A stretch of DNA of 64,000 bases from Lentisphaerae bacterium GWF2_49_21 (GCA_001804805.1 MHBH01000077.1:87355-151354); one strand, 5' to 3'; shown: positions 9,986-63,755, counted from the stretch's first letter. Notes: generated by a model not told the origin, from the letters alone. Program-made: numbers and translations.

Positions 9986-9997
9986 GGTATCAGATTA

Positions 9998-10027
9998 TCG
10001 ACAGGATAACAGGATTAACAGGATAAT
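9998..10027 (+). promoter_or_regulatory. promoter module copy 1: TCGACA-N18-GATAAT, spacer = 3 x ACAGGATWA
   Basis: ACAGGATAACAGGATTAACAGGATAAT differs by 1 nt from the copy at 21497..21523. An inverted partial copy (AAAATCCTGTAATCCAGTC) lies at 10049..10067. Confidence 0.45.
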
Positions 10028-10102
10028 TATGCATAAAGGAAAATCATGAAAATCCTGTAATCCAGTCAAATAATAGATTATTAATAAAAGGAGGAATTGG
10101 AA

Positions 10103-12958: not shown

Positions 12959-14397
12959 AACACCGTGGATATCTGGGTCTTGTCAGGTCGCATCTTGACA
13001 GGCAGCTGAAGTACGGTCTTGCAGATTTCGGTCCGTCGCCTTCGCCCATGTGGATGTCGAGCCTTGATACACGCACCGGGAAATATCCCGAGAATGACAG
13101 CAGGCCCGTCCATATTCCGCGCCGCCATTACAGGGCGATAGATGCGCCCAAAGGGTGTTCACTATACTGGGACCAGCCATCATGCGTTGCCGCACATGCG
13201 CTTTCTAAAATCACAGGAGAGAAAAGCTACGGTGCCGCCGTTGATTCATATGTTTCAGCATTTCTTGAACGTTGCATCGCAAAGAACGGAATATTCCTCT
13301 GGGGAAACCATTACTACTGGGATGCCTTCCAGGGCAAAACCCTGAAGTTCAAGGGCGAAGAAGTTCCAAAATCCGTTGACTTTGAAATTGAAAACGGCGA
13401 TTATCACGAAGCCAGGCCGATTCCGCCCGCCTGGGACCTTTTCTGGAAAGTCTCTCCGGAAAAGACGGAAAAGGAAATCCGGGCATACTGCCTGAATTCA
13501 TTCTTTGATCTCAAGACCGGAGGATTCAACCGTCATTCTGACAGGAAGAAAGGATGCGCATTCATCGAATCCGGAGGGATCATCGCTGAATCCCTTGCCT
13601 GGCTTTATGGAAAGACCAATGACAAGTCTCTTCTCGACCAGGCCAATCTAATCATCAATTACAGTTTCACCGAGAAAGGGCTGGAGACTGGTCTCCTCGT
13701 GAACAATCCAACTGTCACCCGCTGGGACAAGTTCGCCAGCACCACCGAGTGCGGGCTCTGGGGCGGATCCCTGCTCCGCGCATCCGCTTGTGCTGGCAGG
13801 AAAACCGAATGGATCGAAAAGGCCTCAAGCGCAGTTTCAGCTTATCTCAAATATGGGTATGACGAGAGCTCAGACAAATATTGGGGTCGGTTACGCGTCG
13901 CCGACGGTTCACCTATAATCGGCAAATCCGAATCTGACAAGCCCAACGACATCTCAGAAAAACACCAACCACTCGACTATGCCGACATATGGCGCCCGCT
14001 GTTTCCGGCCCATGACTATCCCATGCAGTTTGCGGAATGCTGTCTATGCATTTATGAGATCACTGGTGAAGAAATATACCGTGAAGCCTGCGATAGATGG
14101 GTGCGACAGATAAAGGAGTCATTGTCGGATAGAAATCATGGAAAATATGCCGAACATTACGGGCGCTGTATTCATTTCCTCTTGCGTTTTGGAAAAGACT
14201 CAAAGAATTCAGAATATCTGAAACTTGCTCAGACGTTAGCAGATGAAGCTGTGGAAACATTGTTCGACAATGGTATGTTCAGAGGACATCCCGGCGAGCA
14301 CAGATATGACGCGGTCGACGGCGTCGGCTTCCTGATGCTTGCGCTTCTTTGCCTTGAAACCGATAATGAAATTGACATGATGGGGATGGGATGGTAG
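12946..14397 (+). CDS. hypothetical protein (possibly an alpha/alpha-toroid glycan-active enzyme)
   Basis: 483-aa ORF with coding-like composition; overlaps the upstream gene by 13 nt. I recognise no diagnostic motif. Confidence 0.55.
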   Translation: MQELKHRGYLGLVRSHLDRQLKYGLADFGPSPSPMWMSSLDTRTGKYPENDSRPVHIPRRHYRAIDAPKGCSLYWDQPSCVAAHALSKITGEKSYGAAVDSYVSAFLERCIAKNGIFLWGNHYYWDAFQGKTLKFKGEEVPKSVDFEIENGDYHEARPIPPAWDLFWKVSPEKTEKEIRAYCLNSFFDLKTGGFNRHSDRKKGCAFIESGGIIAESLAWLYGKTNDKSLLDQANLIINYSFTEKGLETGLLVNNPTVTRWDKFASTTECGLWGGSLLRASACAGRKTEWIEKASSAVSAYLKYGYDESSDKYWGRLRVADGSPIIGKSESDKPNDISEKHQPLDYADIWRPLFPAHDYPMQFAECCLCIYEITGEEIYREACDRWVRQIKESLSDRNHGKYAEHYGRCIHFLLRFGKDSKNSEYLKLAQTLADEAVETLFDNGMFRGHPGEHRYDAVDGVGFLMLALLCLETDNEIDMMGMGW

Positions 14398-14511: not shown

Positions 14512-15354
14512 ATGAAAATTCTTGCGGTCGGAAACAGTTTCTCGGGTAATTCAACGAGATTCTTCAAGGAAATCGTAAAAAGCGCCGGCGGATGCAGGCT
14601 CGTATTCGGTCATGCGTGCATCGGCGGATGTCCTCTTGAGAAACACTACAGGCTTGCGATCAAGCATGAGCGCAACACCAGCGCTCCAGAAGGCAAGCCA
14701 TACTGGCACAATGGCAAGAAGATGAGCCTGAAATCAATGCTCAAGGCGGAGAAATGGGATTATGTGACAATCCAGCAGTACAGCATGCACAGCTTCCAGA
14801 TCGGCACATACAGGCCGTGGGGAAAACGCCTTTACAACTATATAAAGAAATATGCCCCGCAGGCGGAAATCGTCTTCCACCAGACCTGGGCGTACAGGGA
14901 GGATGACAGGGAGCTTTTCAACAAGAAATTCACTCCTGATAAAATGTACAAGGATCTGGCCAAGGCATATCAGATTATCGCTTCCGAGATCGGAATAAAG
15001 AGGATTATTCCTGTCGGCGACGCTTTCCATCTTGCGACGAATTCTCCAAAATGGAAATTCATTCCTGACACTAAATTTTTCTCCAGCAATCCCGGGTTCC
15101 CCGCCCTTCCCAAGGACAAGCACTCAATTCATGGCGGATACCACTGGCGTGACAAGGACGGGATGAAAGTGCTTGGATATGACAGCCATCATGCGAACAA
15201 AGCAGGCGAGTTCATGGGCGGCTGCGTCTGGCTCGAGTTCTTCTTCGGCAAGGATTGCCGCAAGATAAAGTTCAGACCGAAGGAAGTTCCACCCAAAGAT
15301 GCGGAGTTCCTGAAGAAGATTGCGCATAGGGTAATAATTTCCACTCAAAAGTAG
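14512..15354 (+). CDS. DUF4886-like SGNH/GDSL-type hydrolase
   Basis: 280 aa. N-terminal MKILAVGNSFS block. AGGAG ribosome-binding site upstream. Confidence 0.6.
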   Translation: MKILAVGNSFSGNSTRFFKEIVKSAGGCRLVFGHACIGGCPLEKHYRLAIKHERNTSAPEGKPYWHNGKKMSLKSMLKAEKWDYVTIQQYSMHSFQIGTYRPWGKRLYNYIKKYAPQAEIVFHQTWAYREDDRELFNKKFTPDKMYKDLAKAYQIIASEIGIKRIIPVGDAFHLATNSPKWKFIPDTKFFSSNPGFPALPKDKHSIHGGYHWRDKDGMKVLGYDSHHANKAGEFMGGCVWLEFFFGKDCRKIKFRPKEVPPKDAEFLKKIAHRVIISTQK

Positions 15355-17203: not shown

Positions 17204-18171
17204 AGCATTATGCAGTCACTATTACCGCAAAGGAAAAGGCCGAACTCCGTGAGGTCGCTGAGCCTCCTGCCTTGAAGCCAAATGAGGTCAGAGGCAGGAC
17301 GCTCTGCACGTTGATCAGCCCCGGGACCGAACTCGCGTGGAACTATTGCGGAAAGAGTTTCCCGTCAAATCCGGGCTATGCCGCCGTATTCTCGGCCGAG
17401 GAGATGGGCACAGATGTCAAGGATATTAAAAAGGGGGATGTCTTTTTCTGCAAGAGCGGCCACAGGAGCATACAGCAGTGCGATGCCGGAGATGCCGTCA
17501 GGGTCCCGGAAGGTCTTGCCCCTGAGAAGGCGGTCATTGCAAGACTGATTGGTGTTTCATTGACGACATTGATCACGACTACAGCCAGACCGGGAGACAT
17601 TGTGATTGTCACCGGTGCCGGCCCTGTCGGATATCTTGCGTCCCAGATTTTCTCAATATCCGGCTATGAGGTTTTAATAGTCGAGCCGGATGCAGGCAGG
17701 AGGGATCTTGTAAAGAAGACATGCGGGCTCAAGGCGGTTGAAAAAATTCCATTTGAGGACAAATCAATTTGCGGAAATGTCGCGCTTGTCGTCGAATGTT
17801 CAGGCCATGAACAGGCTGTTCTCGAAGCATGCAAGGCGGTGAGGAAGCGCGGTGAAGTTGTGATGGTAGGCGTCCCATGGCAGAAAAAGACGGATCTTTG
17901 CGCTCACGAACTCCTCCATGCAGTCTTCCACAAGTATGTCGTCCTTAGAAGCGGATGGGAATGGGAGATTCCTCTTCATTCATCGGATTTCCGTCCGCAC
18001 AGCATATATTCAGGATATCAGACGGCGCTGAAATGGCTGGCTGAAGGGAAGGTCAAGCTTGACGGGCTGAGCACGCTGCTTGATCCGCGAAATCCGCAGG
18101 AGGCGTACCAGGATCTGCTGAACAAGCGCGCCAAAGGGCTTTTCTCGATCTTCGACTGGAGGATGATTTGA
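17200..18171 (+). CDS. zinc-type alcohol dehydrogenase (MDR) family oxidoreductase
   Basis: 323 aa. Rossmann VTGAGPVGYLASQ. ATGA overlap with the upstream gene. Confidence 0.75.
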   Translation: MKHYAVTITAKEKAELREVAEPPALKPNEVRGRTLCTLISPGTELAWNYCGKSFPSNPGYAAVFSAEEMGTDVKDIKKGDVFFCKSGHRSIQQCDAGDAVRVPEGLAPEKAVIARLIGVSLTTLITTTARPGDIVIVTGAGPVGYLASQIFSISGYEVLIVEPDAGRRDLVKKTCGLKAVEKIPFEDKSICGNVALVVECSGHEQAVLEACKAVRKRGEVVMVGVPWQKKTDLCAHELLHAVFHKYVVLRSGWEWEIPLHSSDFRPHSIYSGYQTALKWLAEGKVKLDGLSTLLDPRNPQEAYQDLLNKRAKGLFSIFDWRMI

Positions 18172-18205
18172 GGAACGTCTTATTGTAATATTGAACCTGA
18201 AACTT

Positions 18206-18342
18206 GTTGGTAGTTAAGCCCGTAAGGACTGTTTCTGGGAGTAGGTACGTGCTTCAGCATGTACCATCTTAATATTCAGGATTGGGACAGGCTAAAGCCC
18301 GTCCCTACTTTAAGAACATGTCTTGCGACATTAACTACAAAC
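18206..18342. repeat. two-shell composite REP element (137 bp)
   Basis: Outer shell: GTTGGTAGTTAA+hairpin (18206-18230) and hairpin+TTAACTACAAAC (18318-18342). Inner REPIN: GTAGGTACGTGCTTCAGCATGTACC (18241-18265) and GGGACAGGCTAAAGCCCGTCCCTAC (18284-18308). Confidence 0.8.
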
Positions 18343-18390
18343 GAATTCAAATAGGCGATTTAAAAACCGCCAGACCTGGGAGGAAATACT

Positions 18391-18756
18391 ATGATCATTC
18401 GCAAATTCGAAGCTGCCGTGAAGGAGTTCGACAAGTGCCATGACGGCAAGGGTGTTCTGCTCTGCACCGAGATGCTTGCGGAGTACCAGAGGAAGGAACC
18501 TGGAGTCAAGTTTTACCATGACAATATTCTTCAGCCGGGCGACAGCATAGGAGAGCATCTGCACAAGGACGACGAGGAGGTCTATATAATTATTGAAGGC
18601 ACTGGCATCATGAAAGTCGACGGAAAAGAGGAAAGGGTCCAGTCCGGAGATGTCTGCATCACCCGCAAAGGGCACAGCCATTCGCTTGTGAACACCGGGA
18701 AGACACCGATGCATTTCCTGGTGGTGGGAGTGGTGCTGCAAAAGGCAGGATATTAG
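18391..18756 (+). CDS. cupin domain protein
   Basis: 121 aa. GEHLHKDDEEVYIIIEGTG...GHSHSLVNTG, the two cupin motifs. Confidence 0.8.
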   Translation: MIIRKFEAAVKEFDKCHDGKGVLLCTEMLAEYQRKEPGVKFYHDNILQPGDSIGEHLHKDDEEVYIIIEGTGIMKVDGKEERVQSGDVCITRKGHSHSLVNTGKTPMHFLVVGVVLQKAGY

Positions 18757-18802
18757 AAGCGGCTATAAGAATACATTGCTAACTTGCTGCAGATATATTC
18801 CT

Positions 18803-18898
18803 GTTGGAGTTCACAGCTTTAGCGTGTGCATTTTTTTATTTTTTCATCCAGAAATTTCCCGGAATTACAAAGAACACGCTAAAGCTGTGAACTCCAAC
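18803..18898. repeat. GTTGGAG-headed REPIN doublet (perfect 25-bp inverted repeat)
   Basis: GTTGGAGTTCACAGCTTTAGCGTGT at 18803-18827 and its exact reverse complement at 18874-18898. Confidence 0.8.
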
Positions 18899-19024
18899 CT
18901 AATGATTTTACTAAGCGAAATATTTTCCCTGAATATCTCAATTGCCCTGCATCCCATGGCATGCTTTATGCTCCGTGACAATTAGATTCACTATGTTTGC
19001 ACAACGAAATTTTGGAGATGGCAA

Positions 19025-19405
19025 ATGATTCTTATCTTCGAAGACAACATGGATATCGGGCTCGTTCTGAAACGCATGCTAACCCACATGTTCCATGAGA
19101 ATGCCGTAGTGACATCCAATTTCGTTGATGCGGAAAATATGGTATTGGCCGGAGAAGTTGAACTTGTTCTGAGCGACCTGAATATTGAAGGCCACAAGGA
19201 ACAGGGGCTTGACCTCATTAAGAAAATAAGGAGGATCAAACCCCATACTTCTCCGCCAATCGTCGTCTATACCGGGGTGAACTGCAATGACACCTTGTAT
19301 GCCGAGGCGGAAAGGTTCTCCGACGAGATCTTCGAGAAGAGCGAAATCTCCCTGCCTCAGCTCTGCAAGGAGATGTACCGTCTGCTGAACCTCAGAAAAC
19401 GCTGA
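19025..19405 (+). CDS. stand-alone response regulator receiver domain protein
   Basis: 126 aa. CheY-like pattern (MILIFEDN..., LVLSDLNIEG, ...K). Confidence 0.7.
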   Translation: MILIFEDNMDIGLVLKRMLTHMFHENAVVTSNFVDAENMVLAGEVELVLSDLNIEGHKEQGLDLIKKIRRIKPHTSPPIVVYTGVNCNDTLYAEAERFSDEIFEKSEISLPQLCKEMYRLLNLRKR

Positions 19406-19410
19406 ATTCC

Positions 19411-19542
19411 AACCACGAAACACACGAAATAAAACTCTCTTAACCTCCCTGTTTTTTCTTAATCACAAAATCAATTGTTAATTTTTTGCGCAGCAAAACC
19501 TAAACAATGGTATTTTTCGTGTGATTAGTGTGTTTCGTGGTT
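19411..19542. repeat. inverted repeat built from tandem CACGAAA-type units
   Basis: AACCACGAAACACACGAAAT (19411-19430) against ATTTTTCGTGTGATTAGTGTGTTTCGTGGTT (19512-19542). A 15-bp perfect core. It starts 6 nt after the stop codon. Confidence 0.7.
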
Positions 19543-19614
19543 AATTCTTATCCCTTGCATTTAAAATCATTCCTAATATATTTAAAAACAAAACCAATTA
19601 AGGAATTATATCCC

Positions 19615-20619
19615 ATGCCACGCAAAAACGTCAAGATAAACAAACCGCCGGTGCTCATCAGGCAGACCCAGAAAAGCATCCAGAAGATCGAAAAGATGCT
19701 CGACGGGACTTTCCTATCATACTGGAATTCGCCCGGAGGATCCGTCTGCCACAACGATGTGATGGCGTTCTACGAGATCCTCAAATACATGAAGACCGGG
19801 AAGAATCTCTACCTCTTCATAAAGTCCAACGGCGGAGATGGAGAGGCTTCACTGCGAATCGTGAACCTGCTCAGGAAGCATTTCAACAAGATCATCGCGA
19901 TCCTCCCTCTTGAATGCGCGTCAGCGGCAACTATGATCGCCCTCGGCGCCGACGAGGTCCAGATGGGCCCCCTCGCCTACCTCACAGCAATCGACACCTC
20001 CCTCTGCCACAGTTTGTCGCCAGTCGACAAGAACAACCAGACGGTAAGCGTCAGCCAGGACGAGCTCACCCGCGTGATCCGCCTCTGGCACGAATATAAA
20101 CAGGGAGCCGGCGAAAATCCTTACAAATCGCTCTATCCGCACATACATCCCCTGGTTTTCGGGGCGATTGACAGGGCGAGTTCGCTTTCAATCAAGCTCT
20201 GCAAGGAAATTCTCTCGTACCACATAAAGGACGCCAAGGTTTCCGACAAGATAAGCCAGCACCTCAATTCGAACTATCCTTCGCACGAATATCCGATCAC
20301 CCTCCGCGAAGCCCAGAGGATCGGGCTGAAGGTCAAGGCGATAGATCCCGCCCTCAACGATCTGCTGATCGAACTGAACTCATATTATTCTGAGATGGGA
20401 CAGCGGGCCCTGACCGACTACGACGAGGAGAACTACCACAACAACGAGATCCTGAACATCCTCGAAGGCGACCGCATCCAGATCTACTACCAGAACGACA
20501 AGGACTGGCACTACAGGAAAGAGGAAAGGCGCTGGGTGCCTCTGAACGACATAAGCCTCTGGTACAGGCAGGTAGTCTCAGGGAAGAAGATCGTCTCTTC
20601 GAAGTTCCATATCAGATAA
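19615..20619 (+). CDS. ClpP-fold serine protease (SDH/SppA-like family)
   Basis: Start at the ATG at 19615. IKSNGGDGEASLRIVNLL...ECASAATMIALGADEV resembles serine dehydrogenase proteinase family proteins. Confidence 0.65.
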   Translation: MPRKNVKINKPPVLIRQTQKSIQKIEKMLDGTFLSYWNSPGGSVCHNDVMAFYEILKYMKTGKNLYLFIKSNGGDGEASLRIVNLLRKHFNKIIAILPLECASAATMIALGADEVQMGPLAYLTAIDTSLCHSLSPVDKNNQTVSVSQDELTRVIRLWHEYKQGAGENPYKSLYPHIHPLVFGAIDRASSLSIKLCKEILSYHIKDAKVSDKISQHLNSNYPSHEYPITLREAQRIGLKVKAIDPALNDLLIELNSYYSEMGQRALTDYDEENYHNNEILNILEGDRIQIYYQNDKDWHYRKEERRWVPLNDISLWYRQVVSGKKIVSSKFHIR

Positions 20620-20645
20620 ATTTCCGGACGGAAATTTATATTTTG
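20617..20645 (+). terminator. stop-codon-embedded palindrome TAAATTTCCG-GA-CGGAAATTTA followed by TATTTTG
   Basis: 10-bp stem whose first three bases are the TAA stop codon; a T-rich tail follows. Confidence 0.5.
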
Positions 20646-20649
20646 ATTT

Positions 20650-20787
20650 GCTTGTAGTAGTGCAATTTATTGCACATTCTAGAAGTAGGGACGGGCTTTA
20701 GCCTGTCCCACTCTTATAATCAAGATGGTACATGCTGAAGCACGTACCTACTTGGAATAACGGCGTATAAATTCGCCTACTACAAAC
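20650..20787. repeat. two-shell composite REP element (138 bp)
   Basis: Outer shell: GCTTGTAGTAG+TGCAATTTATTGCA and GGCGTATAAATTCGCC+TACTACAAAC. Inner REPIN at 20685-20751, same as the 18241 unit in opposite orientation with a diverged spacer. Confidence 0.8.
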
Positions 20788-20811
20788 ATGATCTGCGTGA
20801 AACTTGAACTC

Positions 20812-20879
20812 GTTGGAGTACAAACTTTAGTTTGTCTTCAGGATCAAAAAAATACGCAAGCTAAAGCTTGTACTCCAAC
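20812..20879. repeat. GTTGGAG-headed REPIN doublet with non-identical stems
   Basis: GTTGGAGTACAAACTTTAGTTTGTC (20812-20836) and CAAGCTAAAGCTTGTACTCCAAC (20857-20879). Confidence 0.75.
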
Positions 20880-20883
20880 CTAA

Positions 20884-21477
20884 TCAATTGGATCGGCGCA
20901 GGTCTTCTTGTAATTTTTTAACGGCCTTATACTCCTCCGAATCTGATTCCGTGCCGGCGACTACCGCCTTCACTATCGCCGAAATCTTCTCCTGCTGCTC
21001 CGGATTTATCCCGGCTTTTCCAAGTATTTCAGAAACTCCATCGATATATTTTTTTCCGCTGGCGGAAAAAAATATTATGACAAGAGAAGTCTTCACGACA
21101 CACGGATCACACTTGGTTCCGCCAAGGACATTGTCCGCCAGCTTGCACGCCTTTTCAAGATCCTTCTGGGCTTTGTCATCCAGCTTGAACTGACTGGAAA
21201 GAAGCGCCTTGACCTTCTCGATTACAGGTGATGCTGATTCGTCCTTTGAAGCCCTTCCGAGGCACTGGTCGGCGAACTTGCACCATTTGGCGCAGCCAAG
21301 ATCTATTCTGGGATTCTTGATCTCATTGCTGCATTTTTTGCAGATAAGGAAAGGTTCATCTTTCCAGAATTCCATCTCATTGCCGCAGTGCGGACATTTC
21401 AGCGTGAATATGTCCTCCGGCTTCCAGAATCTCATGTCCTGCCCCGGACACCTTGGCCTTGCGTTGTCGGATTTCAT
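20884..21477 (-). CDS. zinc-ribbon domain hypothetical protein
   Basis: 197 aa. N-terminal CPHCG...CKKC plus further Cys pairs. I recognise no family. Confidence 0.55.
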   Translation of the reverse strand: MKSDNARPRCPGQDMRFWKPEDIFTLKCPHCGNEMEFWKDEPFLICKKCSNEIKNPRIDLGCAKWCKFADQCLGRASKDESASPVIEKVKALLSSQFKLDDKAQKDLEKACKLADNVLGGTKCDPCVVKTSLVIIFFSASGKKYIDGVSEILGKAGINPEQQEKISAIVKAVVAGTESDSEEYKAVKKLQEDLRRSN

Positions 21478-21493
21478 TTATCAAAACCTTTTT

Positions 21494-21523
21494 TTGACAG
21501 GATAACAGGATTTACAGGATAAT
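21494..21523 (+). promoter_or_regulatory. promoter module copy 2: TTGACA-N18-GATAAT, spacer = 3 x ACAGGATWA; candidate promoter of the C1 operon
   Basis: Perfect -35 at 21494-21499 and GATAAT at 21518-21523. The next plus-strand gene starts at 21985, implying a leader of about 450 nt. Confidence 0.5.
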
Positions 21524-21600
21524 AATATTGTATGCCTTAGCATGCGGAAATCAAGCTTAATATTTTCATGTAACCGCCGGACTCGCAACGTTCCTATTTC

Positions 21601-21740
21601 GCTTGCAGTAGTCCGCCTAGGCGGATTTGCGCGTTAAGTAGGTACGTGCTTTAGCATGTACCATCTTAGTTTCCAGGAATGGGACAGGCTAAAGCCCGTC
21701 CCTACTTTAAAAAAACGCGCAAACATGCGCTACTACGAAC
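21601..21740. repeat. two-shell composite REP element (140 bp) with an extra 10-bp stem
   Basis: Outer shell: GCTTGCAGTAG+TCCGCCTAGGCGGA and GCGCAAACATGCGC+TACTACGAAC. Extra stem TTTGCGCGTT/AACGCGCAAA. Inner REPIN at 21638-21705. Confidence 0.8.
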
Positions 21741-21771
21741 GGAATCCTTTATTTTGCCAAGTCAGATGCTT

Positions 21772-21795
21772 TTGCCGGCGAGACGCCAGCGCTCC
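21772..21795 (+). repeat. left copy of a 24-bp perfect inverted repeat bracketing the homocysteine methyltransferase gene
   Basis: TTGCCGGCGAGACGCCAGCGCTCC. Its exact reverse complement is at 22925-22948. It contains a local GGCG-AGA-CGCC hairpin. Confidence 0.8.
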
Positions 21796-21805
21796 CTTAT
21801 TGATA

Positions 21806-21856
21806 ATAATGCCAATATGCCTTGCCATTTCTCAGGGCAAAGCATATTGGCATTAT
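21806..21856 (+). other. long hairpin (about 20 bp) in the putative operon leader
   Basis: ATAATGCCAATATGC-C-TTGCC[atttctcag]GGCAA-A-GCATATTGGCATTAT. No U-tract follows. Confidence 0.6.
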
Positions 21857-21984
21857 CCTGCAATATACTTGAAGTTTGCTATAAAGCTGCAAAACCCGGC
21901 TTTTATTTATTCGGGTGTATAATTATTGTTTGGCGTTTACTTGAGCGATGCAATATTTTACCAAAATTATTTTAGGAGGCTGAT

Positions 21985-22882: not shown

Positions 22883-22917
22883 TTGATACTTGATACTCGT
22901 AACTTGAAATTGGAAAT
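22883..22917 (+). repeat. 5 x 7-mer tandem array (TTGATAC TTGATAC TCGTAAC TTGAAAT TGGAAAT)
   Basis: Begins 2 nt after the stop codon at 22879-22881. Confidence 0.65.
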
Positions 22918-22924
22918 TATTATC

Positions 22925-22948
22925 GGAGCGCTGGCGTCTCGCCGGCAA
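22925..22948 (-). repeat. right copy of the 24-bp inverted repeat (GGAGCGCTGGCGTCTCGCCGGCAA)
   Basis: Exact reverse complement of 21772-21795. Confidence 0.8.
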
Positions 22949-22970
22949 TTGATTTAGAAATTCGAAATTA

Positions 22971-22995
22971 GTTGGAGTTCACAGCTTTAGCGTGT
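22971..22995 (+). repeat. single GTTGGAG-headed REP
   Basis: GTTGGAGTTCACAGCTTTAGCGTGT, identical to 18803-18827. Confidence 0.75.
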
Positions 22996-23038
22996 TCTTT
23001 AATTATCGATAAATAATATAATTGGAGGAATTGTTAAT

Positions 23039-24106: not shown

Positions 24107-24262
24107 GTAGGTACGGGCTTTAGCCTGTACCATTGGTACACCCTAAAGGGCATACCTAAGAAGTAGGGACGGCCTTTCTGTGTCCGGCGTAGCCTTTTGG
24201 CGAAGTCGGAAGGCTGTCCCAATCAAGAACGTAGAATGGTACAGGCTAAAGCCCGTACCTAC
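24107..24262. repeat. compound REPIN filling the whole intergenic gap (4 REPs)
   Basis: GTAGGTACGGGCTTTAGCCTGTACC at 24107-24131, directly after the TAA stop. Its perfect inverse is at 24238-24262. Inside are a degenerate REP (24135-24160) and GTAGGGACGGCC[37-nt insert]GGCTGTCCC (24163-24220). Confidence 0.85.
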
Positions 24263-25269: not shown

Positions 25270-25439
25270 GTAGGGACGGCCTTTCTGTGTCCGGCGTAGC
25301 CTTTTGGCGAAGTCGGAAGGCTGTCCCAAGCAAGAAAGCAGAATGGTACAGGCTAAAGCCCGTACCTAAGAAGTAGGGACGGCCTTTAGGCTGTCCCAAG
25401 TAAGAATGTAGAATGGTACAGGCTAAAGCCCGTACCTAC
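25270..25439. repeat. two tandem REPIN doublets
   Basis: 25270-25327 is identical to 24163-24220 (the insert-bearing REP). Paired REP at 25345-25366. GTAGGGACGGCCTTTAGGCTGTCCC at 25373-25397 is the insert-free version. GGTACAGGCTAAAGCCCGTACCTAC at 25415-25439. Confidence 0.85.
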
Positions 25440-35195: not shown

Positions 35196-35198
35196 TAA

Positions 35199-35228
35199 CG
35201 GACTGGATAACGGAATTTACAGGATTAT
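35199..35228 (+). promoter_or_regulatory. promoter module copy 3 (diverged): CGGACT-N18-GATTAT
   Basis: ACTGGATAACGGAATTTACAGGATTAT aligns with the 27-mers at 10001 and 21497. The -35 is weak. Confidence 0.3.
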
Positions 35229-35314
35229 TTTATGGTTATAATTCCCACAAAGAAAAAGTAATCTCTAGTCTGTGAAAGTCTGTGGCAAAATAATCTCAAA
35301 GGATTCTATATCTG

Positions 35315-43966: not shown

Positions 43967-44034
43967 GTAGATACGCCCTTCAGGGTGTATCATTCTTAAA
44001 TATTAAGATGGTACATGCTAAAGCACGTACCTAC
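43967..44034. repeat. REPIN doublet upstream of araC
   Basis: GTAGATACGCCCTTCAGGGTGTATC (43967-43991) and GGTACATGCTAAAGCACGTACCTAC (44010-44034). Confidence 0.8.
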
Positions 44035-44867: not shown

Positions 44868-44991
44868 GTAGGTACGTGCTTTCCTGTCCTGAGCTTATCG
44901 AAGGGAGAATGTACCATCTTTTCTCAATAATGGTACACCCTGAAGGGCGTACCTACTTTTAAGAACATCCCTTACGGGATTAACTATAAAC
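44868..44991. repeat. REPIN doublet (left unit carries a loop insert) plus a right-hand outer-shell arm only
   Basis: GTAGGTACGTGC[tttcctgtcctgagcttatcgaagggagaat]GTACC (44868-44915); GGTACACCCTGAAGGGCGTACCTAC (44932-44956); ATCCCTTACGGGAT+TAACTATAAAC (44967-44991). Confidence 0.75.
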
Positions 44992-46124: not shown

Positions 46125-46192
46125 GTTTGTAGTTAAGCCATTTTTGGCTGTGAATATAAACACGAAGAAACACGCAAGAATGCGTTAACTAC
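46125..46192. repeat. empty outer-shell element (no inner REPIN)
   Basis: GTTTGTAGTTAA+GCCA-TTTT-TGGC ... ACGCA-AGAA-TGCGT+TAACTAC. Confidence 0.7.
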
Positions 46193-46277
46193 CAGCAAAT
46201 AAACATACGATATTTTGACTGCAGCAGTTATTAACAGAGGCAATTTCAAAATTGCCTCTTTTGAGCTGATTGCTAAA

Positions 46278-46346
46278 GTAGGAGTTCACAGCTTTAGATG
46301 TGCATCCAATTGATGATAAGACACAACTGAAGTTGTGAACTCCAAC
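46278..46346. repeat. GT[A/T]GGAG-headed REPIN doublet
   Basis: GTAGGAGTTCACAGCTTTAGATGTG (46278-46302) and ACACAACTGAAGTTGTGAACTCCAAC (46321-46346). Confidence 0.75.
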
Positions 46347-49649: not shown

Positions 49650-49674
49650 GTTTGTAGTTAAGCTCGCAAGAGCT
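49650..49674 (+). repeat. single outer-shell-type REP GTTTGTAGTTA+AGCTC-GCAA-GAGCT
   Basis: Same 11-nt head as at 46125 and 18206. GNRA-type loop. Confidence 0.7.
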
Positions 49675-49717
49675 GTTCTCCTCCCACTCCCTCTTTTTTT
49701 TATTATTTGATTTCATC

Positions 49718-58248: not shown

Positions 58249-59319
58249 ATGCAGGACAATCCGGTAAACAAACTTTTTGAAAAACGTGTAAGCTGGCTCG
58301 CGGACAGCGGCCCCGAGGACGACATAGCCATAAGCTCAAGGATACGTCTCGCGAGAAACCTGTGCGATCTGCCTTTTCCTTCGAATGCAAGCACGGAACA
58401 TCTTGATTCCTCCACCGCCGCGGTCCTCCTGGCCGTGGAAAAATTGAAGATCTTCAAGAAATTCTACGAGATCGACATGTCCAAGCTGAGCGCCCTCGAC
58501 AGGCAGGTCCTCCTTGAAAGAAGGCTCATAAGCAGGGAGTTCTACGCGAAGAAGCAGAACACCGCCCTTATAATGACGGATGATGAGATATGCGCCATCA
58601 TGATCAACGAGGAGGACCACCTGAGGATGCAGGCGATACTCTCGGGACTGCGCCTCGGCGAAGTCTGGAAGATCATTGACAGGATGGATGACAGGCTCTC
58701 GACCGAGCTTCCTTTCGCCTTCGATGTGAACCTTGGATACCTGACATCCTGTCCTACAAATGTCGGAACGGGAATCAGGGCTTCGGTAATGCTGCATCTC
58801 CCGGGACTTGTCCTTTGCGAACAGATAAACGCCGTCATCCAGGCGGTAAACAAGCTCGGACTTGCCGTCAGGGGTATTTTCGGAGAGGGAACTGAAAGCC
58901 TTGGAAACCTTTTCCAGATCTCGAACCAGAGCACTCTCGGCGAAACGGAGGTTCAGATCATCGACAGGCTCGAATCGGTCATCAGGCAGATAATCAACCA
59001 TGAGAAGAACTCCCGCCAGAAGCTCCTGCATAACCGCAGGGAATTCCTGATGAACCACATTGGAAGGGCATTTGGAATACTGAGGCATTCATACATCGTA
59101 TCGAGCGAGGAGACACTGAACTCCCTTTCCGCGCTGAGACTCGGCGTTGACATGGGCATGTTCTCGTCAGTAGACATTCATACGGTAAATGAGCTGTTCG
59201 TGACAGTACAGCCCGGACATCTGCAGAAATACGCCGGCAAGGAGATCGATCCCTCCGAGCGCGATATTTTCCGGGCCACTCTAATAAGGGAGAGGTTGAA
59301 GTCTTCGGAAAAGAAATGA
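58249..59319 (+). CDS. mcsB: protein arginine kinase (ATP:guanido phosphotransferase)
   Basis: 356 aa. CPTNVGTGIRASVMLHLPGL signature. Confidence 0.88.
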   Translation: MQDNPVNKLFEKRVSWLADSGPEDDIAISSRIRLARNLCDLPFPSNASTEHLDSSTAAVLLAVEKLKIFKKFYEIDMSKLSALDRQVLLERRLISREFYAKKQNTALIMTDDEICAIMINEEDHLRMQAILSGLRLGEVWKIIDRMDDRLSTELPFAFDVNLGYLTSCPTNVGTGIRASVMLHLPGLVLCEQINAVIQAVNKLGLAVRGIFGEGTESLGNLFQISNQSTLGETEVQIIDRLESVIRQIINHEKNSRQKLLHNRREFLMNHIGRAFGILRHSYIVSSEETLNSLSALRLGVDMGMFSSVDIHTVNELFVTVQPGHLQKYAGKEIDPSERDIFRATLIRERLKSSEKK

Positions 59320-59320
59320 A

Positions 59321-59430
59321 TGTCCAATATCGAACAAGGAATGTCGAATGTTGAAGTAAATTTCCCGGAAAATGATTTTGATTCCACTTGGATATTGGAA
59401 ATTCCTTGTTGGATATTGGTTATTCAAGGA
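59321..59430. repeat. heptamer-periodic inverted repeat between mcsB and the kinase gene
   Basis: TGTCCAA TATCGAA CAAGGAA TGTCGAA TGTTGAA (59321-59355) against TTCCACT TGGATAT TGGAAAT TCCTTGT TGGATAT TGGTTAT (59382-59423). A 19-nt core matches with 1 mismatch. Confidence 0.65.
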
Positions 59431-62903: not shown

Positions 62904-62945
62904 GATTGAGTCGGAGAACCGACCATAAAGAGAGTCTTGTGCATT

Positions 62946-63087
62946 GCTGTAGCCGCGTCACTCTGATGACGCGTCTAGTATTGAAGAACACGCCAACAGA
63001 GTGGCGTGGCTACAGCAGAGCAATTATAGAAAAACAAATCATTAGAAACAGAAGGGACGCGTCAGCAGAGTGACGCGGCTACAGTGG
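62946..63087 (+). repeat. REP cluster (3 REPs), left direct repeat of the RAYT cassette
   Basis: GTAGCCGCGTCACTCTGATGACGCGTC (62949-62975, forward), GTAGCCACGCCACTCTGTTGGCGTG (62989-63013, reverse), GTAGCCGCGTCACTCTGCTGACGCGTC (63056-63082, reverse). Confidence 0.85.
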
Positions 63088-63113
63088 AAATAATTATATA
63101 AGGAGCATGCGAT

Positions 63114-63593
63114 ATGGAGGAATATCCTAAGAGACCGCCCCGCCTTACGACATTGTTCAGCGGCGTAAAACCATTTTATTTCGTAACGTTCAACACTCGC
63201 AACAGGAAAAGCGTTCTTGCAAATGACAAGATCTATGAACGTTTTCTATCCTTCTGCAATGAAGCGAAAGAACATGGAGTCTTCGTCGGGACATTCGTAA
63301 TCATGCCAGATCACATTCACTTGTACGTCTGGATAAATCTTGAAAGCTGTGGCCTCAAGAAATGGATTAAATCCTTGAAATGCTTTTTAAGCGTCAGTCT
63401 GGATGAAATGAACGTCAAAAGACCTCATTGGCAAGAAGGATTTTTCGACCATATCCTACGAAGCTCCGACAGCTACAGGGAGAAGAGCATTTACATGATG
63501 AATAATCCTGCAAGGGCAGGTTTATGTAAACCACCTGATGAATGGAAGTACAAAGGGACAATGAAAGACATCTACTGGTCTGACTACGATTAA
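63114..63593 (+). CDS. REP-associated tyrosine transposase (IS200/IS605-like Y1 HUH enzyme)
   Basis: 159 aa. HUH motif (MPDHIHLYV) and catalytic Tyr context (SIYMMNNP). Flanked by GTAG-headed REPs. Confidence 0.85.
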   Translation: MEEYPKRPPRLTTLFSGVKPFYFVTFNTRNRKSVLANDKIYERFLSFCNEAKEHGVFVGTFVIMPDHIHLYVWINLESCGLKKWIKSLKCFLSVSLDEMNVKRPHWQEGFFDHILRSSDSYREKSIYMMNNPARAGLCKPPDEWKYKGTMKDIYWSDYD

Positions 63594-63610
63594 ATTGATC
63601 TCTCGGCTTC

Positions 63611-63753
63611 GCTGTAGCCGCGTCACTCTGCTGACGCGTCTTGTATTGAAGAACACGCCAACAGAGTGGCGTGGCTACAGCAGAGCAATTATAGAAAAAA
63701 CAAATCATTAGAAACAGAAAGGACGCGTCAGCAGAGTGACGCGGCTACAGCGG
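63611..63753 (+). repeat. REP cluster (3 REPs), right direct repeat of the RAYT cassette
   Basis: REPs at 63614-63640 (forward), 63654-63678 (reverse) and 63722-63748 (reverse). Confidence 0.85.
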
Positions 63754-63755
63754 AA

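Follow-up and report, generated by a model that had tools for sequence, protein, structure and literature searches.

Here we describe three intergenic elements of ~138 nt, each a hairpin-pair repeat of one family centred within a hairpin-pair repeat of a second family, in a 64,000-nt stretch of DNA from Lentisphaerae bacterium GWF2_49_21 (GCA_001804805.1, MHBH01000077.1:87355-151354; this whole stretch is called the window below). We consider it probable, on balance, that these elements are mosaics of two GTAG-tagged families of repetitive extragenic palindromic (REP) sequences in an uncultured bacterium of the Victivallales (Lentisphaerota), and that they form a nested REP mosaic resembling the bacterial interspersed mosaic elements (BIMEs). 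We refer to the inner family as REP-G and to the outer family, whose hairpin units form the arms of the elements, as REP-T. An earlier note on this DNA had drawn attention to the elements, suggesting either that one REP family uses another as its insertion target or that a three- or four-way junction is the functional unit.

Read from the outside in, a composite begins with its head (GYTTGTAGTWR), which leads into a short hairpin. Next come a linker (typically GTTCTTAAA), a palindrome of 25 nt (GTAGGKACGNNCTTYAGNNTGTMCC) and a spacer of 17-18 nt, and beyond the spacer these parts follow in mirror image; the polarity is arm →, REP →, REP ←, arm ←. All three composites lie where the earlier note had placed them (Table 1), and the inner doublet does occur in either orientation, being inverted in composite 2 relative to composite 1. 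They share one heterodimer of a GGTACGTGC-type and a GGGACGGGC-type unit, which belongs to a widespread REP-G subfamily of 66-69 nt. The half version and the lone arm reported alongside them are likewise present, as is the empty outer shell, whose end falls at 46196 and not at 46192. The window contains 14 heads matching GTTYGTAGTWR with at most one mismatch, where 2.7 ± 1.7 would be expected; the observed number was reached in 0 of 100 shuffles, and nine of the 14 are arms of the elements described here. All window copies of both families are intergenic.

The inner family is a classic GTAG-tagged REP. REP-G (TTAAAGTAGGKACGNNCTTYAGNNTGTMCC) is 25 nt long with a GTAGG tag and a 9-bp stem, and a conserved, strand-specific G.T pair in that stem (ACG...TGT) makes it fold better on the GTAG strand. 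An exact-pattern scan with one genome per species located REP-G almost only in metagenome-assembled genomes (MAGs) of Victivallales/Lentisphaerae, the main host being GWF2_50_93, whose syntenic genes are ~77-86% nucleotide-identical to the window. Our first sample, 685 kb comprising the window and fetched loci (designated by L numbers) and ascertained around REP-G matches, contains 172 REP-G units. They include 52-54 GTAG-outward doublets, the majority of which measure 63-93 nt; most show no trace of arms. The inner unit is thus like a REPIN (REP doublet forming a hairpin), as the earlier note had proposed: two inverted REPs with a short spacer, this being the predominant arrangement. Non-orthologous copies are ~90-95% identical between species whose genes share 80-86% identity. 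An AraC-type gene of the window has an arm-free doublet just upstream of its ribosome-binding site. The doublet persists, with different stems, at the orthologous sites L102:2553-2619 and L106:~2455-2538, which suggests co-option or else local gene conversion.

REP-G can itself be interrupted. A 33-nt mini-insert (CTGTGTCCGGCGTAGCCTTTTGGCGAAGTCGGA), which folds into a small hairpin and includes GTAGC, sits at a fixed point of the REP-G loop (CTTT^AG). Units of both REP-G types carry it, and it recurs at several loci and across several genomes: in each of the two arm-free REP-G clusters of the window, as a variant in the half composite, and in L095:6397-6497 and L106:~2455-2538. The insert looks like a mini-element targeting REP loops, and it adds a third level of nesting. 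The site of the first cluster holds a plain 64-nt doublet in L023, L083 and L095. At the sites of both clusters L088 has a ~110-nt repeat of its own (CGGTGTAACGGAGTATAGGTGTACCGGTG..., at 13900-14020 and 15030-15140); in different lineages, then, both are hot spots for repeats.

The outer arm is a separate GTAG-tagged REP family that exists independently of REP-G: singletons, dimers and shells of its own bear out the earlier note's view of the outer heads and hairpins as a second REP-type family. REP-T, with the consensus (C/T)GYTYGTAGT + TA or A + 5-bp stem + tetraloop + stem complement + GTTCTT, is present in Lentisphaerae bacterium GWF2_49_21 and related Victivallales MAGs. Arms were detected with a regular expression and a hairpin scan. 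The relaxed form was discarded, since it gave 170 matches against ~100 in shuffles, and only matches with a GT tail and a stem of at least 5 bp were kept, leaving 66 curated arms in the 685 kb. The hairpin has a stem of 5-7 bp and a tetraloop, and within the GTAGT tag TAGT is invariant in 39 aligned arms. There are two classes, TTA and TAG, in which the distance from GTAGT to the stem differs by 1 nt; MAFFT accordingly gave no common structural register for them, and a single covariance model for all arms was dropped. The TTA class uses seven recurring stems (AGCCC in 13 copies, ATGCC in 6, AGCCA in 5, AGCTC in 4, and ATGTC, ACGTC and ACGCA in 3 each) and ATCCC once, while 17 of 19 TAG-class arms are GCGCA/TGTT/TGCGC.

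These hairpins are a conserved structure with subfamily-specific, covarying stems. Covariation is strong, with double changes at four of five pairs (46 cells), and among arms chosen by head and frame alone all four variable pairs are perfect in 38 of 50. A strict GNRA loop (GYAA or GCGA) occurs in 27 of the 29 TTA-class arms with a C-G-closed stem, the remaining two having GTGA; the GNRA-type loops pointed out earlier in four window copies are as described (GTAA, GCAA, GTAA and GCAA). The description of the hairpins as private to each copy needs correcting. Stems do differ from copy to copy within the window, because the window samples different REP-T subfamilies, but the same stems recur often in related genomes (GCGCA/TGTT, AGCCC/GYAA, ATGCC, ATGTC, AGCTC, ACGCA and AGCCA). 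One subfamily alone (GCGCA) occurs in more than 118 metagenome stretches. REP-T arms occur as singletons, as head-in dimers, as head-out dimers (shells), in tandem and adjoining REP-G; the eight head-in cases, ATGCC/AGCCC heterodimers with a spacer of ~22 nt, never hold REP-G.

The association between the two families is real and far from random. All 23 REP-G units that lie within 25 nt of an arm share its orientation and are found on its tail side, usually 9-11 nt from the stem; on the head side the count within 25 nt is 0. Arms accompany REP-G heterodimer doublets in 10 of 27 cases and homodimers in 2 of 25 (strict detection, Fisher p = 0.02), a contrast that is larger by eye because many arms are degenerate. 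Since the first sample was chosen on REP-G, a second was chosen on the arm, by scanning Joint Genome Institute (JGI) metagenomes for the GCGCA arm; 134 unique arms were classified among the matches listed. Lone arms make up 53 of them (40%). Canonical empty shells account for 28 (21%), with stems 31 nt apart in 27 of the 28 and a conserved spacer, CAGTCTTTTGAGATTCCGTT or its complement. Arms in shells with REP-G number 12 (~10%), with nine intact doublets whose stems are 79-81 nt apart; two further shells with a loop-inserted REP-G were counted as other cargo. An unrelated pair, GGAGCGCCGGTCTCCAGACCGGC...GCCGACCTGGAGGTCGGCGTTCC, fills the shells of 16 arms, or up to 20 when unclassified cases are included (12-15%; stems mostly 77-111 nt apart). 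In eight more a partner arm encloses unclassified cargo (stems 58-177 nt apart), and 17 arms (13%) adjoin REP-G with no partner arm.

The second cargo, a hairpin pair of the GGAGCGCC type and ~70 nt long, was seen in L114, L116, L117, L140, L141 and others. A related sequence, GCCGGCGAGACGCCAGCGCTCC, forms an inverted repeat in the window at 21772-21804 and 22916-22948, bracketing the homocysteine S-methyltransferase gene. The existence of a canonical empty form together with at least two cargo families makes the shell an element in its own right. The earlier note had staked its proposal on a preferred association of outer heads with inner REPINs, and this holds by half: ~60-75% of arms have no inner REP, and arms are therefore not dedicated to the REPIN, yet polarity and spacing are fixed. 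Filled and empty shells both exist, as that note had indicated, sometimes with the same arm pair (L006:2212-2290 empty and L003:2515-2644 filled; L012 empty and L010, L036 and L044 filled). Such paralogues share arms and tails, and the centre is replaced, not interrupted.

Comparison of orthologous loci in sister species revealed composite-free, lone-arm and one-arm-missing states. The syntenic L088 (~80% nucleotide identity) has neither arms nor REPINs at any of the three composite sites. At the site of composite 3, complete in the window, L099 like L088 is without an arm, whereas L097, L100 and L101 have the left arm only, GTTTGTAGTAG-TCCTCC-TGC-GGAGGA-TTTGCGCGTTCT. This lone arm is as far from a conserved anchor as the left arm of the window (TCCGCC..GGCGGA-TTTGCGCGTTAA), and the two stems are distinguished by one compensatory change, G-C to T-A. 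The same site in GWF2_50_93 (L095) is occupied by arms with GGAGCGCC-type cargo, next to which lies an empty shell. For composite 1, the orthologue of 18150-18350 in L200 (~1660-1800) still has its REPIN and right arm, which are 96.5% identical to those of the window, against 81-86% for the genes on either side. It has lost the left arm together with the 50 nt upstream of that arm; the gap falls exactly between CTGGAG and CTGGGAG and looks like a microhomology deletion. Lost with them were a stop codon and intergenic DNA, and the dehydrogenase reading frame now enters the REP and ends at a TAG in the REP loop. A separate search of JGI metagenomes yielded no allele of this site without the element. 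The half composite also exists in GWF2_50_93, where its orthologue (L045:255-361) has the same head and flank but a different arm stem, ATTCTCC/ATT/GGAGAAT; it is absent from L102 and L106. The empty shell is absent at the orthologous sites in L102, L105, L106 and L107, although a similar shell at L056:7059-7131 lies in unrelated flanking sequence, and the lone arm of the window is absent at the orthologous sites in L102 and L106. Among the relatives examined, neither the empty shell nor the lone arm has a filled counterpart; the elements are wholly absent there.

Paralogous copies show that composites are also duplicated as units. Three GWF2_50_93 contigs (L010, L036 and L044) share a whole composite almost free of mismatches, with the heads as the limits of similarity. 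In composite 3, the stretch comprising the REPIN and right arm (21626-21740) is 94.8% identical to the paralogue L010:957-1067. Spacer variants track arm type (L010 with the window unit at 21638, L036 with L044, and the window unit at 18241 with L020), and junction lengths are lineage-specific: in GCGCA composites the T side has GTTAA and the G side GTTCTTAAA. Modules are exchanged as well: one and the same REPIN is accompanied by TTA-class arms in some copies, by TAG-class arms in others and by no arms in still others, the GGCGTA arm is combined with different REP-G variants, and orthologous arms carry different hairpins.

Folded as single-stranded DNA (ssDNA), the composites are markedly stable (z = -4.2 to -8.2). 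Composites 2 and 3 are predicted to fold with a head-head stem around the arm hairpins and a long central hairpin, as is composite 1 on its minus strand. This head-closed fold is trivial, because the heads are an inverted repeat. Heads of 11 complete composites compared at two variable positions agree within an element about as often as expected by chance (0.55 observed against 0.48 expected, and 0.36 against 0.40), and there is thus no sign of selection on a closing helix. The heads do not covary, and a three- or four-way junction as the functional unit finds no support.

Turning to possible mobilising enzymes, the window encodes one Y1 transposase of the type associated with REPs (REP-associated tyrosine transposase, RAYT). 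The gene was found by tblastn with an approximate E. coli RayT query used as a probe only and then confirmed with Pfam; its homologues are annotated RayT by their sources. On either side lies a cluster of ~150 nt with three REPs of a third family, GCTGTAGCC with GCGTCA or ACGCCA stems, which are compensatory variants. A Victivallaceae homologue (L094, 52% identical) is also flanked by GTAGCC-type REPs. The lineage therefore has REP/RAYT systems, and the repeats belonging to the window RAYT are neither of the composite families. No second RAYT was found in the ~0.74 Mb searched, and open reading frames (ORFs) between closely spaced REP-G doublets in L039 and L050 proved not to be RAYTs. In GWF2_50_93 a second, larger Y1_Tnp gene has three tandem copies of GGGTCTTTGAGCGGGGTCACACCCCCGCTATTAATTT upstream (L014:7340-7500), probably that gene's own hairpin repeats; the gene is probably unrelated to REP-G and REP-T.

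On the mosaic reading that we favour, REP-T forms GTAG-outward dimers, the shells, whose canonical state is empty with a conserved spacer of ~20 nt between stems 31 nt apart, and REP-G forms its REPIN-like dimers of 64-69 nt. In a composite the REP-G REPIN stands in place of the shell spacer; polarity and spacing are fixed, each junction reading stem-GTTCTTAAA-GTAGG. One palindromic element would offer its centre as a preferred site for another: REP-G or the GGAGCGCC-type pair in shells, the 33-nt insert in REP-G loops. Once formed, composites are copied as whole units and are also reshuffled by recombination or gene conversion between dispersed copies, along with small deletions. We infer that movement would take place on ssDNA through a RAYT or an IS200-like Y1 transposase recognising GTAG and a hairpin, with hairpin loops and spacers as targets, because of the GTAG-plus-hairpin anatomy and of the known RAYT and IS200/IS605 enzymes, Y1 transposases that act on single-stranded hairpins.

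Several observations weigh against this reading. The conserved ~20-nt spacer of the empty shell is absent from filled shells, and simple insertion is therefore not demonstrated; a clean before-and-after insertion was seen at no locus examined. A single origin with subsequent unit copying could explain the junction asymmetry of GCGCA composites just as well. Of the RAYT genes found, none is flanked by REP-G or REP-T, and the only RAYT clade examined goes with GTAGCC-type REPs. Both censuses, moreover, rest on MAG and metagenome contigs among the matches listed, with some redundancy between assemblies of the same organism. The idea that one REP family is the insertion target of another thus gains from the independence of the families, the fixed polarity and the second cargo, and loses from the missing spacer and whole-unit copying. 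A stronger version makes REP-T shells dedicated landing pads, with GTAGG- and GGAGCGCC-type REPINs inserted site-specifically in their spacer and the 33-nt element in REP-G loops: a hierarchy of mutually parasitic non-coding replicators up to three levels deep, its targets chosen by a Y1 transposase reading a hairpin-flanked site. A second, unrelated cargo fits the shell centre as a landing site, and the fixed geometry, at least two cargo types and stepwise orthologous states are compatible with this version, without being proof of it; we consider it less likely than not.

The ~138-nt composite might instead be the primary mobile unit, a long REPIN or a miniature transposable element with inverted repeats (MITE) having two hairpins per arm, of which doublets, lone arms and halves would be decay products. 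The whole-composite paralogues with similarity ending at the heads would follow naturally, as would junction lengths particular to a composite lineage, the correlation of spacer variants with arm type, the overlap of the tail GTTCTT with the REP-G leader CTTAAA as GTTCTTAAA, and the one half element produced by arm deletion (L200). However, empty shells, with their 31-nt geometry and conserved spacer, outnumber filled ones and cannot be deletion products of composites, and the shells accept a second, unrelated cargo. Most REP-G doublets lack arm traces, head-in REP-T dimers are never found with REP-G, and a lone arm stands at an orthologous site of composite 3, all of which leaves the primary-unit explanation rather unlikely. 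A MITE in the strict sense, a cut-down DDE transposon, was rejected: the heads form inverted repeats, but the bases flanking the three composites (gaaactt/gaattca, ttgattt/atgatct and ctatttc/ggaatcc) contain no direct duplication of a target site.

Less probable still is a selected structured nucleic acid with a functional multi-branch fold, acting either as RNA (for instance as terminator, riboregulator or stabiliser of an mRNA) or as DNA (a cruciform or a site of protein binding). Covarying arm stems, the prevalence of GNRA-type loops in C-G-closed TTA-class arms, strong folding z-scores, the near-identity of composite 1 in two species whose flanking genes have diverged, and an arm-free REPIN beside a ribosome-binding site in at least three genomes could be read in its favour. 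Against these stand the lack of covariation between the heads that would close the junction, the occupation of tandem, convergent and divergent gene contexts alike, the presence of the REP-G doublet in both orientations within composites, the occurrence of each module alone and the element-free state of the same loci in close relatives; high identity is equally expected from continued copying or gene conversion. At the gathering threshold Rfam returned only a tRNA, and at E ≤ 1 over 18100-21900 only weak, sub-threshold matches to generic hairpin models (eukaryotic miRNAs) and one long non-coding RNA model; none of the known RNA families fits the composites. Chance adjacency of two abundant families crowded into limited intergenic space is very improbable. 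Several repeat families do share the intergenic regions of these genomes, and most arms and most REP-G units are unassociated, but all 23 adjacent pairs adopt one of four possible configurations, the stem-to-stem distance is constant to within 79-81 nt in nine of nine intact filled shells, and arms prefer heterodimers; polarity and spacing statistics contradict an explanation by chance.

Table 1. REP-T and REP-G elements and the RAYT locus of the window (hairpins as stem/loop/stem).
Feature	Position	Strand	Sequence or hairpin	Context or remark
Composite 1	18206-18342			Between an ADH-like gene and a cupin gene
Composite 1, left REP-T arm	18206-18230	+	GTTGGTAGTTA + AGCCC/GTAA/GGACT	One stem mismatch; tail and linker to 18240
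Composite 1, REP-G T-type	18241-18265	+	GTAGGTACGTGCTTCAGCATGTACC	
Composite 1, REP-G G-type	18284-18308	-	GTAGGGACGGGCTTTAGCCTGTCCC	Spacer between both REP-G
Composite 1, right REP-T arm	18318-18342	-	ATGTC/GCAA/GACAT	
Composite 2	20650-20787		Arm hairpins GTGCAA/TTTA/TTGCAC and GGCG/AATTTATA/CGCC	Between convergent genes; inner doublet inverted relative to composite 1
Composite 2, REP-T arm	20650-20675	+		
Composite 2, REP-G G-type	20685-20709	+		
Composite 2, REP-G T-type	20727-20751	-		
Composite 2, REP-T arm (T side)	20762-20787	-	GGCGAATTTATACGCC	Same subfamily as L067:3754-3779
Composite 3	21601-21740			Divergent promoter region upstream of homocysteine S-methyltransferase gene
Composite 3, REP-T arm	21601-21625	+	TCCGC/CTAG/GCGGA, then TTTGCGCGTTAA	
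Composite 3, REP-G T-type	21638-21662	+		
Composite 3, REP-G G-type	21681-21705	-		
Composite 3, REP-T arm	21717-21740	-	GCGCA/TGTT/TGCGC	
Half composite	44868-44991			
Half composite, REP-G	44868-44915	+		26-nt loop insertion; variant of 33-nt insert at 44883-44908
Half composite, REP-G	44932-44956	-		
Half composite, sole REP-T arm	44967-44991	-	ATCCC/GTAA/GGGAT	
Empty head-out shell	46125-46196	+ and -	AGCCA/TTTT/TGGCT (+), ACGCA/TTCT/TGCGT (-)	TTA class; arms 22 nt apart
Lone REP-T arm	49650-49680	+	GTTTGTAGTTA + AGCTC/GCAA/GAGCT + GTTCTC	Including tail; hairpin unit 49650-49674
Arm-free REP-G doublet	43967-44034			REPIN-like, GTAG outward; just upstream of ribosome-binding site of AraC-type gene
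Arm-free REP-G cluster	24107-24262	alternating		Four units; 33-nt loop insertion at 24178-24210 in one
Second arm-free REP-G cluster	25270-25439	alternating		Four units; 33-nt loop insertion at 25285-25317
RAYT-type Y1 transposase gene	63114-63593	+		Within 62941-63755; Pfam PF01797, E = 1.8e-7
REP clusters flanking RAYT	62941-63089 and 63606-63755			Three REPs each

The window and its relatives contain further repeats. A family of long palindromes, GTTGGAGTTCACAGCTTTAGCGTGTTCTTT followed by its mirror image, occurs at 18802-18898, 20813-20877, 22970-23000 and 46277-46345, often less than 100 nt from composites or the shell. A motif, GACAGGATAACNGGATT(T/G)ACAGGAT, lies upstream of genes at 9995-10030, 21491-21526 and 35196-35231; in L105, L106 and L107 a palindromic version of it occupies the MoxR-DUF58 spacer, the site of the window's empty shell. 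Finally, a 41-nt inverted repeat, 80% complementary, with its halves 28 nt apart and rich in TCGAA and TGTCC, is found at 59317-59426, just upstream of an ORF starting at 59388.

REP clustering and nesting are known, and the composites are an unusually orderly instance; what is new here is an outer GTAG REP family with a canonical empty dimer, regular and frequent nesting, and several cargoes. The portion of the survey of GTAG REPs drawn on here (Di Nocera, De Gregorio & Rocco 2013, BMC Genomics 14:522, PMC3733652) describes them as singletons, as HH, TT and rare HT dimers, as stem heterodimers and as hybrid dimers of different families, and for Anabaena variabilis, Halothiobacillus neapolitanus and Thermomicrobium roseum it reports REP dimers enclosed in longer palindromes. 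The window families share with these the short stem-loops, terminal GTAG, singletons, HH and TT dimers, heterodimers and hybrid dimers. Measured against that portion of the survey, which does not name Lentisphaerota among its organisms, they differ in that the outer palindrome constitutes a GTAG REP family, which has singleton, HH, TT and canonical empty dimer forms, and in that it accepts at least two cargo families.

REPINs can form clusters by inserting into or beside other REPINs (Bertels & Rainey 2011, PMC3116915). As in the REPIN and RAYT systems (PMC3116915; Nunvar et al. 2010, PMC2817692), the inner unit consists of two inverted REPs with a short spacer, its copies are highly similar and mostly doublets, and the window has a RAYT gene with REP clusters on both sides; unlike in those systems, the RAYT seen is not flanked by the families concerned. 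Whereas the mixed clusters of Pseudomonas fluorescens SBW25 are few and irregular (PMC3116915), nesting here is regular, with fixed geometry and many copies. Enterobacterial BIMEs are mosaics of REP classes in alternating orientation (PMC2817692). Like them, the composites are extragenic mosaics in which different REP classes are joined by conserved linker motifs at fixed spacing, but they are concentric (→ → ← ←) where BIME REPs alternate; within the window it is the two arm-free REP-G clusters that show alternating orientation. Insertion sequences that target REPs (Tobes & Pareja 2006, PMC1525189) likewise use a palindromic repeat as the landing site of a mobile element. The cargo here differs in being non-coding (a 64-69-nt REPIN, a ~70-nt hairpin pair or a 33-nt mini-insert), with no transposase gene.

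This work defines at least three REP families in Lentisphaerota, a phylum absent from the REP literature consulted here, and provides leads to two further repeat families. Repeat content at individual intergenic sites turns over between species with ~80-85% gene identity. If only ordered clustering is involved, the composites add one more well-documented case to the catalogue of BIMEs and REPINs. If, however, the centre of one REPIN is indeed the chosen target of another, they would offer a natural system for studying target choice by RAYT-type transposases and would show the coexistence of several populations of non-coding replicators in one genome.

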